Source: Escherichia coli (GTDB lineage: Bacteria > Pseudomonadota > Gammaproteobacteria > Enterobacterales > Enterobacteriaceae). From it: a stretch of 32,332 nt of DNA. Below, in pieces: positions 12,001-15,000 of the stretch. A program made the position numbers. How positions within the stretch are numbered: position 1 is the stretch's first letter; each line of letters begins with the position of its first letter. Where the stretch lies: assembly GCF_003334335.1 (NCBI RefSeq), contig NZ_QOWQ01000046.1; one strand, written 5' to 3'.

Positions 12001-15000
12001 GCAAAGCCGCATTTGAGCAGAAAATTCTGGCGCGCGTTGAGCGCATTCGCGCGGGCGACGTTTTCGATCCGCAAACTAACTTCGGCCCGCTGGTCAGCTT
12101 CCCGCATCGCGATAACGTGCTGCGCTATATCGCCAAAGGCAAAGAGGAAGGCGCGCGCGTACTGTGCGGCGGCGATGTACTGAAAGGCGATGGCTTCGAT
12201 AACGGCGCATGGGTTGCACCGACAGTGTTCACCGATTGCAGCGACGATATGACCATCGTGCGTGAAGAGATCTTCGGGCCAGTGATGTCCATTCTGACCT
12301 ACGAGTCGGAAGACGAAGTCATTCGCCGCGCTAACGATACCGACTACGGCCTGGCGGCGGGCATCGTGACAGCGGACCTGAACCGCGCGCATCGCGTCAT
12401 TCATCAGCTGGAAGCGGGTATTTGCTGGATCAACACCTGGGGCGAATCCCCGGCAGAGATGCCCGTTGGCGGCTACAAACACTCCGGCATTGGTCGCGAG
12501 AACGGCGTGATGACGCTCCAGAGTTACACCCAGGTGAAGTCCATCCAGGTTGAGATGGCTAAATTCCAGTCCATATTCTAACCAGGAGGTTTATTTGCAA
12601 TTTGACTACATCATTATTGGTGCCGGCTCAGCCGGCAACGTTCTCGCTACCCGTCTGACTGAAGATCCGAATACCTCCGTGCTGCTGCTTGAAGCGGGCG
12701 GCCCGGACTATCGCTTTGACTTCCGCACCCAGATGCCCGCTGCCCTGGCATTCCCGCTACAGGGTAAACGCTACAACTGGGCCTATGAAACGGAACCTGA
12801 ACCGTTTATGAATAACCGCCGCATGGAGTGCGGACGCGGTAAAGGTCTGGGTGGATCGTCGCTGATCAACGGCATGTGCTACATCCGTGGCAATGCGCTG
12901 GATCTCGATAACTGGGCGCAAGAACCCGGTCTGGAGAACTGGAGCTACCTCGACTGCCTGCCCTACTACCGCAAGGCCGAGACTCGCGATATGGGTGAAA
13001 ACGACTATCACGGCGGTGATGGCCCGGTGAGCGTCACTACCTCCAAACCCGGCGTCAATCCGCTGTTTGAAGCGATGATTGAAGCGGGCGTGCAGGCGGG
13101 CTACCCGCGCACGGACGATCTCAACGGTTATCAGCAGGAAGGTTTTGGTCCGATGGATCGCACCGTCACGCCGCAGGGCCGTCGCGCCAGCACCGCGCGT
13201 GGCTATCTCGATCAGGCCAAATCGCGTCCTAACCTGACCATTCGTACTCACGCTATGACCGATCACATCATTTTTGACGGCAAACGCGCGGTGGGCGTCG
13301 AATGGCTGGAAGGCGACAGCACCATCCCAACCCGCGCAACGGCCAACAAAGAAGTGCTGTTATGTGCAGGCGCGATTGCCTCACCGCAGATCCTGCAACG
13401 CTCCGGCGTCGGCAACGCTGAACTGCTGGCGGAGTTTGATATTCCGCTGGTGCATGAATTACCCGGCGTCGGCGAAAATCTTCAGGATCATCTGGAGATG
13501 TATCTGCAATATGAGTGCAAAGAACCGGTTTCCCTCTACCCTGCCCTGCAGTGGTGGAACCAGCCGAAAATCGGTGCGGAGTGGCTGTTTGGCGGCACTG
13601 GCGTTGGTGCCAGCAACCACTTTGAAGCAGGTGGATTTATTCGCAGCCGTGAGGAATTTGCGTGGCCGAATATTCAGTACCATTTCCTGCCAGTAGCGAT
13701 TAACTATAACGGCTCGAATGCAGTGAAAGAGCACGGTTTCCAGTGCCACGTCGGCTCAATGCGCTCGCCAAGCCGTGGGCATGTGCGGATTAAATCCCGC
13801 GACCCGCACCAGCATCCGGCGATTCTGTTTAACTACATGTCGCACGAGCAGGACTGGCAGGAGTTCCGCGACGCAATTCGCATCACCCGCGAGATCATGC
13901 ATCAACCCGCGCTGGATCAGTATCGTGGCCGCGAAATCAGCCCCGGTGTCGAATGCCAGACGGATGAACAGCTCGATGAGTTCGTGCGTAACCACGCCGA
14001 AACCGCCTTCCATCCGTGCGGTACCTGCAAAATGGGTTACGACGAGATGTCCGTGGTTGACGGCGAAGGCCGCGTACACGGGTTAGAAGGCCTGCGTGTG
14101 GTGGATGCGTCGATTATGCCGCAGATTATCACCGGGAATTTGAACGCCACGACAATTATGATTGGCGAGAAAATAGCGGATATGATTCGTGGACAGGAAG
14201 CGCTGCCGAGGAGCACGGCGGGATATTTTGTGGCAAATGGGATGCCGGTGAGAGCGAAAAAATGAGTCGTGATGTGAACTAACGCAGGAACCGATCAGAT
14301 TGAGAGTTACCGTTCCAGAGAGGGGGACCGAATCCTTATATAAACACTGAGGTAACTCTCATGCTTCATATCCAGTATTCATGATGCGGGCTTTTTGCTG
14401 ATATTTAACCCGAACATTCCTGATACAGACTATTAATACAACCTTATCTGCGACAGATTTTATTCTCTGGATATATTATGCGTGAACAAATCAAACAGGA
14501 TATCGATCTGATTGAGATTTTATTTTATCTGAAGAAAAAGATTCGTGTTATCCTTTTTATTATGGCTATATGTATGGCTATGGTGCTGTTGTTTCTGTAT
14601 ATCAATAAAGACAATATAAAAGTGATTTACAGCCTAAAAATAAACCAGACAACGCCAGGTATACTTGTTAGCTGTGATAGCAATAATAATTTTGCCTGTC
14701 AGACTACAATGACTGAAGATGTTATTCAGCGAATTACTACATTTTTTCACACCAGCCCAGATGTCAAGAACAGAGAAATAAGGCTGGAATGGTCAGGAGA
14801 TAAGAGAGCTTTACCAACTGCTGAAGAGGAAATATCTCGCGTGCAGGCCTCTATTATCAAATGGTATGCGTCAGAATATCATAATGGCAGGCAAGTTCTC
14901 GATGAGATACAAACGCCTTCAGCAATTAACAGTGAGCTTTATACAAAAATGATATACCTGACCAGGAACTGGTCATTGTATCCGAACGGTGATGGCTGTG

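Follow-up and report, generated by a model that had tools for sequence, protein, structure and literature searches.

We find that translation of betA very probably begins (at a probability of about 0.95) at a TTG codon, UUG in the mRNA, at positions 12595-12597 of the window, the 32,332-nt stretch of E. coli DNA that we analysed; the codon is positioned by a Shine-Dalgarno (SD) sequence in a tight intergenic junction, and the product has 556 aa. The site is the betB-betA junction of the betIBA operon, by which E. coli converts choline to glycine betaine. This start is already the accepted standard annotation of betA, and its location is nothing new. The original prediction had chosen this TTG over the start of the longest open reading frame (ORF), and the RefSeq annotation, the identity of the product with BETA_ECOLI, the onset of homology, the energetics of the SD duplex and the comparative data all agree with that choice. 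Why the codon is a TTG is a separate matter; the rival readings of its purpose considered below are both compatible with a start at 12595.

Genomic context of the junction

In a K-12-like record, the genes of this region are arranged as yahH, yahG, fdrA, yahE-yahB, pdeL, yahV, betT, betI-betB-betA, ykgH, ykgGFE, rclR, rclABC, ..., ecpRABC. The strain of the window is not K-12, with 10 mismatches over the 28.5 kb aligned. Of the 5426 complete E. coli genomes, 5180 gave a match to a 601-bp segment around the junction (12300-12900). The segment was 100% identical in several of them, a K-12-like chromosome included, and all matches were annotated as betB/betA.

Several differences among strains were observed in and around the operon. 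The bet junction is missing from 246 of the 5426 complete genomes and was found on plasmids at 10 places, and in NZ_OZ501666.1 an IS1B element is inserted inside the 601-bp segment. An internal stop codon makes betI a pseudogene in strain YZLc1-3 (locus L003, 1-296), which might derepress betIBA. Strain 06-00048 (locus L002, 1789-3477) encodes a BetA of 562 aa (1689-nt CDS) rather than 556 aa, and this 562-aa form is common among cluster members. Farther along the window, where an IS3 element truncates eaeH/fdeC in K-12, there are 3.7 kb of different sequence (23361-27077); here fdeC is intact, an ORF on the minus strand (23697-27953) encoding an inverse autotransporter adhesin of 1418 aa.

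Layout of the junction and its ribosome-binding site

The junction reads ...TCC ATA TTC TAA CC AGGAGG TTTAT TTG CAA TTT GAC TAC ATC ATT ATT GGT GCC GGC TCA GCC GGC... in the direction of transcription, and its features are listed in Table 1. Most of the gap between the two genes is occupied by AGGAGGT, the consensus complementary to 16S rRNA and one base longer than AGGAGG. Some of the finer measurements in the original prediction need correction. The AGGAGG that it described is present, but one base downstream of the position given (12583-12588); the spacer from this core to the TTG, claimed to be 6 nt, is TTTAT and thus 5 nt; and the betB stop codon does lie just upstream, although the distance of 14 nt assigned to it is the difference between two coordinates, with 13 nt actually in between.

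Table 1. Features of the betB-betA junction, in window coordinates.
Feature	Position	Strand	Evidence
betB (betaine-aldehyde dehydrogenase) CDS, 490 aa, ATG at 11109	11109..12581	+	RefSeq CDS (record identical over the 601-bp query; L001 1310-2782), ORF listing
betB stop codon TAA	12579..12581	+	Sequence, ORF end, RefSeq CDS end
betB-betA intergenic spacer, 13 nt, CCAGGAGGTTTAT	12582..12594	+	Sequence
Shine-Dalgarno AGGAGGT (AGGAGG core 12584-12589)	12584..12590	+	Exact pattern search, 16S duplex
betA initiation codon TTG	12595..12597	+	RefSeq CDS start, homologous codon TTG/ATG in relatives
betA (oxygen-dependent choline dehydrogenase) CDS, 556 aa + stop	12595..14265	+	ORF, RefSeq, TIGR01810, Pfam, BETA_ECOLI
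Codons of the FAD-binding GxGxxG motif (GAGSAG, residues 9-14)	12619..12636	+	Translation
TTG within betB, in frame with betA, that opens the longest ORF but does not serve as the start	12550..12552	+	ORF listing, weak SD, poor conservation

The longest ORF does reach back into betB, as had been stated: it opens at the in-frame TTG at 12550, downstream of an in-frame TGA at 12535-12537, and overlaps the last 32 nt of betB. Initiation at this upstream codon, whether solely or in addition to 12595, would yield a protein of 571 aa, whose 15 additional N-terminal residues overlap the end of betB. The codon is open and in frame in E. coli, and a minor longer isoform would be compatible with the sequence; however, TTG 12550 has no usable SD. 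SD strength was scored as the best duplex that the 3' end of 16S rRNA (ACCUCCUUA) can form within the 20 nt preceding a candidate start, which gave -11.0 kcal/mol for TTG 12595 and -3.8 kcal/mol for TTG 12550, where the pairing sequence is AGGTGA, 12 nt upstream.

The claim that a consensus SD stands at TTG 12595 is further borne out by an exact search, in which the plus strand of the 32-kb window yields a single AGGAGG and the two strands together yield four; the other three matches fall inside the 3' part of fdeC. Among the 481 TTG triplets on the plus strand, a duplex of -11.0 kcal/mol or below was found at two (12595 and 12602), which have one SD in common. The pairing of the betA SD with a TTG is therefore beyond chance, given that AGGAGG is unique on the plus strand and that two of 481 TTGs reach -11.0 kcal/mol. 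As a candidate start, TTG 12602 is out of frame, lies about 12 nt from the shared SD and is unlikely to be used; it opens an ORF of 18 codons (12602-12658, plus strand) that ends at TGA.

In the equivalent region of K-12, betA is the sole TTG start among 27 complete annotated genes (23 begin with ATG and three with GTG), and its SD is the second-strongest of the 27; the neighbouring bet genes have duplexes of -8.9 kcal/mol (betB) and -6.0 kcal/mol (betI). The start of betA has the composition of an SD-dependent one, namely a canonical codon with a 16S-complementary sequence 4-9 nt upstream. The RNA fold at the junction was not significant (z = -1.27), and its centroid leaves the SD and the start codon unpaired; because the local fold is not significant, there is no sign of coupling based on RNA structure.

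Elsewhere in the operon, the betI-betB junction (11093-11111) has the same design, with TAA, a 13-nt spacer CCGAGGAGACGTG and ATG. The start of the longest ORF lies upstream of the RefSeq start in both of these genes as well (ATG 10490 versus 10508 in betI, and GTG 11106 versus ATG 11109 in betB).

Annotation and protein-family evidence

In a K-12-like strain and two divergent ones, all three with an identical junction, RefSeq places the start of betA at window position 12595 and the end of betB at 12581. The 556-aa product is an exact match to UniProt BETA_ECOLI ("Oxygen-dependent choline dehydrogenase") and to a multispecies RefSeq protein, and an exact-sequence look-up returned it from at least 1000 contigs. 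The same kind of look-up found the 571-aa product of the longest ORF under four GenBank accessions, on five contigs. These records favour the upstream start, as does its being the start of the longest ORF, whereas RefSeq and UniProt use 12595 and not 12550; we read the 571-aa form as a minority mis-call.

The onset of homology points to the same codon, which is residue 16 of the 571-aa ORF. With the TIGR01810 betA equivalog model the score is 1035.9 bits, above the cut-off of 732.1, and model positions 1-532 align to residues 19-552 of the longer ORF; position 5 of NF002550 aligns to residue 17, and position 1 of Pfam GMC_oxred_N to residue 18 (residue 3 when counted from TTG 12595). The alignment to the nearest solved structure, the choline dehydrogenase 9lq0, begins at residue 16, and those to structures of other GMC enzymes begin mostly at residues 16-19, with a few at 11-14. 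The 15-residue extension is thus left uncovered by all three family models and by both of the closest structures, which argues against the upstream start. Translation from TTG 12595 places the Rossmann beta1 strand and the GxGxxG motif directly at the N-terminus of the 556-aa BetA, and the residue numbers 9-14 that had been predicted for the motif on this basis are correct.

The protein is assigned to BetA by its equivalog score, by its two Pfam domains (PF00732, GMC_oxred_N, E = 3e-63; PF05199, GMC_oxred_C, E = 6e-41) together with the GxGxxG motif, and by its neighbours, with betB upstream, betI, and a divergent betT. From the identity to BETA_ECOLI, we infer that it catalyses the oxidation of choline to betaine aldehyde. 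The computed masses of the 556-aa and 571-aa forms are 61.88 and 63.71 kDa, respectively. The abstract of the original bet sequence paper reportedly gives 61.9 kDa for BetA, a value that matches the shorter form and not the longer.

Text searches of the literature found no paper on the TTG start of betA, and the portions available to us of the supplements to a tetracycline ribosome-profiling (TetRP) study and to the TRAINSPOTTER N-terminomics study have no betA entry. Choline, osmotic stress and oxygen are the only conditions that induce the bet genes, and it is therefore unsurprising that betA is missing from these datasets of initiation sites and N-termini. The result confirms the accepted start of betA and implies that the 571-aa call in a few GenBank records is wrong.

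The start codon across species

A scan of one genome per species yielded 80 loci with close relatives of BetA, of which 79 could be analysed at the start by aligning them with the N-terminus of E. coli BetA. At the codon homologous to 12595, TTG is found in 33 of the 79 species, which belong to Pseudocitrobacter, Enterobacter, Lelliottia, Leclercia, Huaxiibacter, the Klebsiella oxytoca group and Raoultella, and also include Citrobacter amalonaticus and C. sedlakii. The same codon is ATG in 17 enteric loci, among them Trabulsiella, Pluralibacter, Cedecea, Pantoea, Kosakonia, Tatumella, Rosenbergiella, several loci labelled Enterobacter and one metagenome-assembled Enterobacteriaceae genome. Among the 29 loci from Pseudomonas and Moraxella, an ATG lies 1-3 codons upstream in 26 and at the homologous codon itself in three.

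The upstream reading frame fares differently. In eight loci of the Klebsiella/Raoultella group the spacer is longer by one base, which brings an in-frame TGA to -45 and leaves no alternative start, and three Citrobacter loci have TCG in place of the upstream TTG. An extension starting at 12550 would therefore be closed off in the former and would lack its start codon in the latter.

The arrangement of the two genes is more widely shared. betB lies upstream of betA in all 79 loci, and of the 33 other species with a TTG start, 25 have a gap of 13 nt between the two genes and eight a gap of 14 nt; enteric loci with ATG have gaps of 12-28 nt, and those of Pseudomonas and Moraxella span 41-278 nt. 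Strong SDs also accompany ATG starts, with duplexes of -12.1 kcal/mol in Cedecea and -11.2 kcal/mol in Pluralibacter. As relatives with ATG have equally strong SDs, a strong SD is not specific to TTG. In a neighbour-joining tree of BetA, ATG is found in the outgroups and TTG in one clade of core Enterobacteriaceae, within which ATG is nested twice (Trabulsiella and Pluralibacter); in both of these lineages the sequence between SD and start differs from that of the TTG loci.

One further relationship was observed. The BetA proteins of E. coli and Pseudocitrobacter vendiensis share 98% identity, and their genes agree at all 60 nt preceding the start (locus L004, 2441-2530; window 12535-12625). 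This upstream match is closer than that of any Enterobacter, Klebsiella or Citrobacter locus, and the two proteins group together on the BetA tree, which suggests a recent horizontal exchange of the bet locus between E. coli and Pseudocitrobacter.

Conservation of the TTG and its SD

Of 5184 E. coli records, 5108 (at least 98.5%) share one and the same 61-nt segment across the junction. When ATG, GTG or CTG was put in place of TTG as the sole change to this segment, no perfect match was found in any E. coli record. In the 34 species with a TTG start, E. coli included, the T of the TTG and the GGAGGT core of the SD never vary, while the spacer does (TTTAT, TTTTT, TCATTT, TCATGT, TTTCA and TCTCA). 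Synonymous divergence among these species is extensive: of the 197 four-fold degenerate sites of betA, only eight (4%) are invariant and the other 96% vary, and at least three bases are seen at 46 of the 61 four-fold sites in the first 150 codons. The invariance of the TTG at such saturating divergence would fit selection on the start codon; however, this must be interpreted cautiously, as a conservation test on this single site is weak (P about 0.04-0.14).

Proposed mechanism of initiation

By anchoring the 30S subunit, the AGGAGGU of the mRNA would place the near-cognate UUG in the P site, and so strong an SD would make this weaker codon usable. A ribosome terminating 13 nt away would cover a downstream SD and start codon, given the size of its footprint. 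The betB stop codon lies within this footprint of the betA start, with a gap of 13 nt in E. coli and of 13-14 nt in every locus that has TTG. On reaching the betB UAA, a terminating ribosome would thus cover both the SD and the UUG, and some initiation on betA is probably coupled to the translation of betB.

UUG starts are found in about 3% of E. coli genes, and among prokaryotes a strong SD is significantly more frequent in genes starting with UUG than in those starting with AUG. In E. coli reporters, UUG falls with GUG into a class of start codons whose initiation reaches 10-100% of that at AUG. The UUG of betA probably holds BetA synthesis below the level that AUG would give.

Possible reasons for a TTG start

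The chances seem to us evenly balanced that the TTG is a tolerated, near-neutral start codon without a regulatory role, fixed once in the ancestor of the bet locus in core Enterobacteriaceae and retained since then because the loss of initiation is kept small by the tight junction and by a strong SD that was already in place. The strong SDs that accompany ATG in the outgroups make it probable that the SD is older than the TTG, and the single TTG clade on the BetA tree is consistent with a single origin. The bet genes, moreover, form a conditionally expressed operon, and a published analysis found selection on start codons to be weak overall and strongest in highly expressed genes. However, a clade that is saturated at synonymous sites should, on a near-neutral account, hold some ATG or GTG at this position, whereas ATG is found in two nested lineages only, both of which have a remodelled spacer.

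It is also possible, though in our view less likely than not, that the TTG has been selected to limit BetA relative to BetB, either so that the removal of betaine aldehyde keeps pace with its formation or so that an excess of a membrane-associated flavoprotein is avoided. Such tuning would be consistent with the invariance of the TTG in 34 species where so few four-fold sites are invariant, with its fixation in E. coli, where neither ATG nor GTG variants are seen, and with the weaker initiation at UUG than at AUG. The TTG is, in addition, always paired with a maximal SD and a gap of 13-14 nt, and betB precedes betA in every locus analysed. Against this stand the weakness of the single-site test and the presence of ATG with an equally strong SD in Cedecea, Pluralibacter and Trabulsiella; the two nested occurrences of ATG in the tree further indicate that it is tolerated in close relatives. 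No study that measures the BetA:BetB ratio, or what a change from TTG to ATG does, was found in the literature. If the TTG does set this ratio, betA would be a small example of start-codon choice balancing two enzymes around a toxic aldehyde, and the tuning could be useful where betA is expressed in plants or engineered strains.

A more elaborate version of selection on the TTG, which we consider unlikely, is that the UUG, the maximal SD and the gap of 13-14 nt form a co-selected module kept throughout the divergence of the bet locus in core Enterobacteriaceae. This module would make BetA sub-stoichiometric to BetB and dependent on its translation, and possibly sensitive to discrimination by IF3 under stress, so that betaine aldehyde would never accumulate.

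A start at TTG 12550, finally, is highly improbable, as the upstream extension is not conserved and the position of 12595 is, a contrast that is near-decisive as far as sequence data go.

Comparison with known systems

The closest known system is betA of E. coli K-12 itself (BETA_ECOLI; WP_001159094.1), in which the protein, the CDS start, the SD and the 13-nt junction are all identical to those of the window; the neighbourhood is also the same, with betT, betI, betB, betA, ykgH and ykgGFE. The AUU start of infC, which encodes IF3, resembles the start of betA in being a non-AUG codon sensitive to discrimination by IF3. The two differ in that infC has a non-canonical codon and a demonstrated feedback loop, whereas betA has a canonical UUG and is not known to be regulated through its start codon. 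With translationally coupled gene pairs, the betB-betA junction shares a stop and a start codon in close proximity with an SD in between, the coupling here being a predicted one only. Among cases of SD-led initiation at UUG, betA of the window is the same in kind, and it stands out for combining a near-maximal SD with a 13-nt operon junction.
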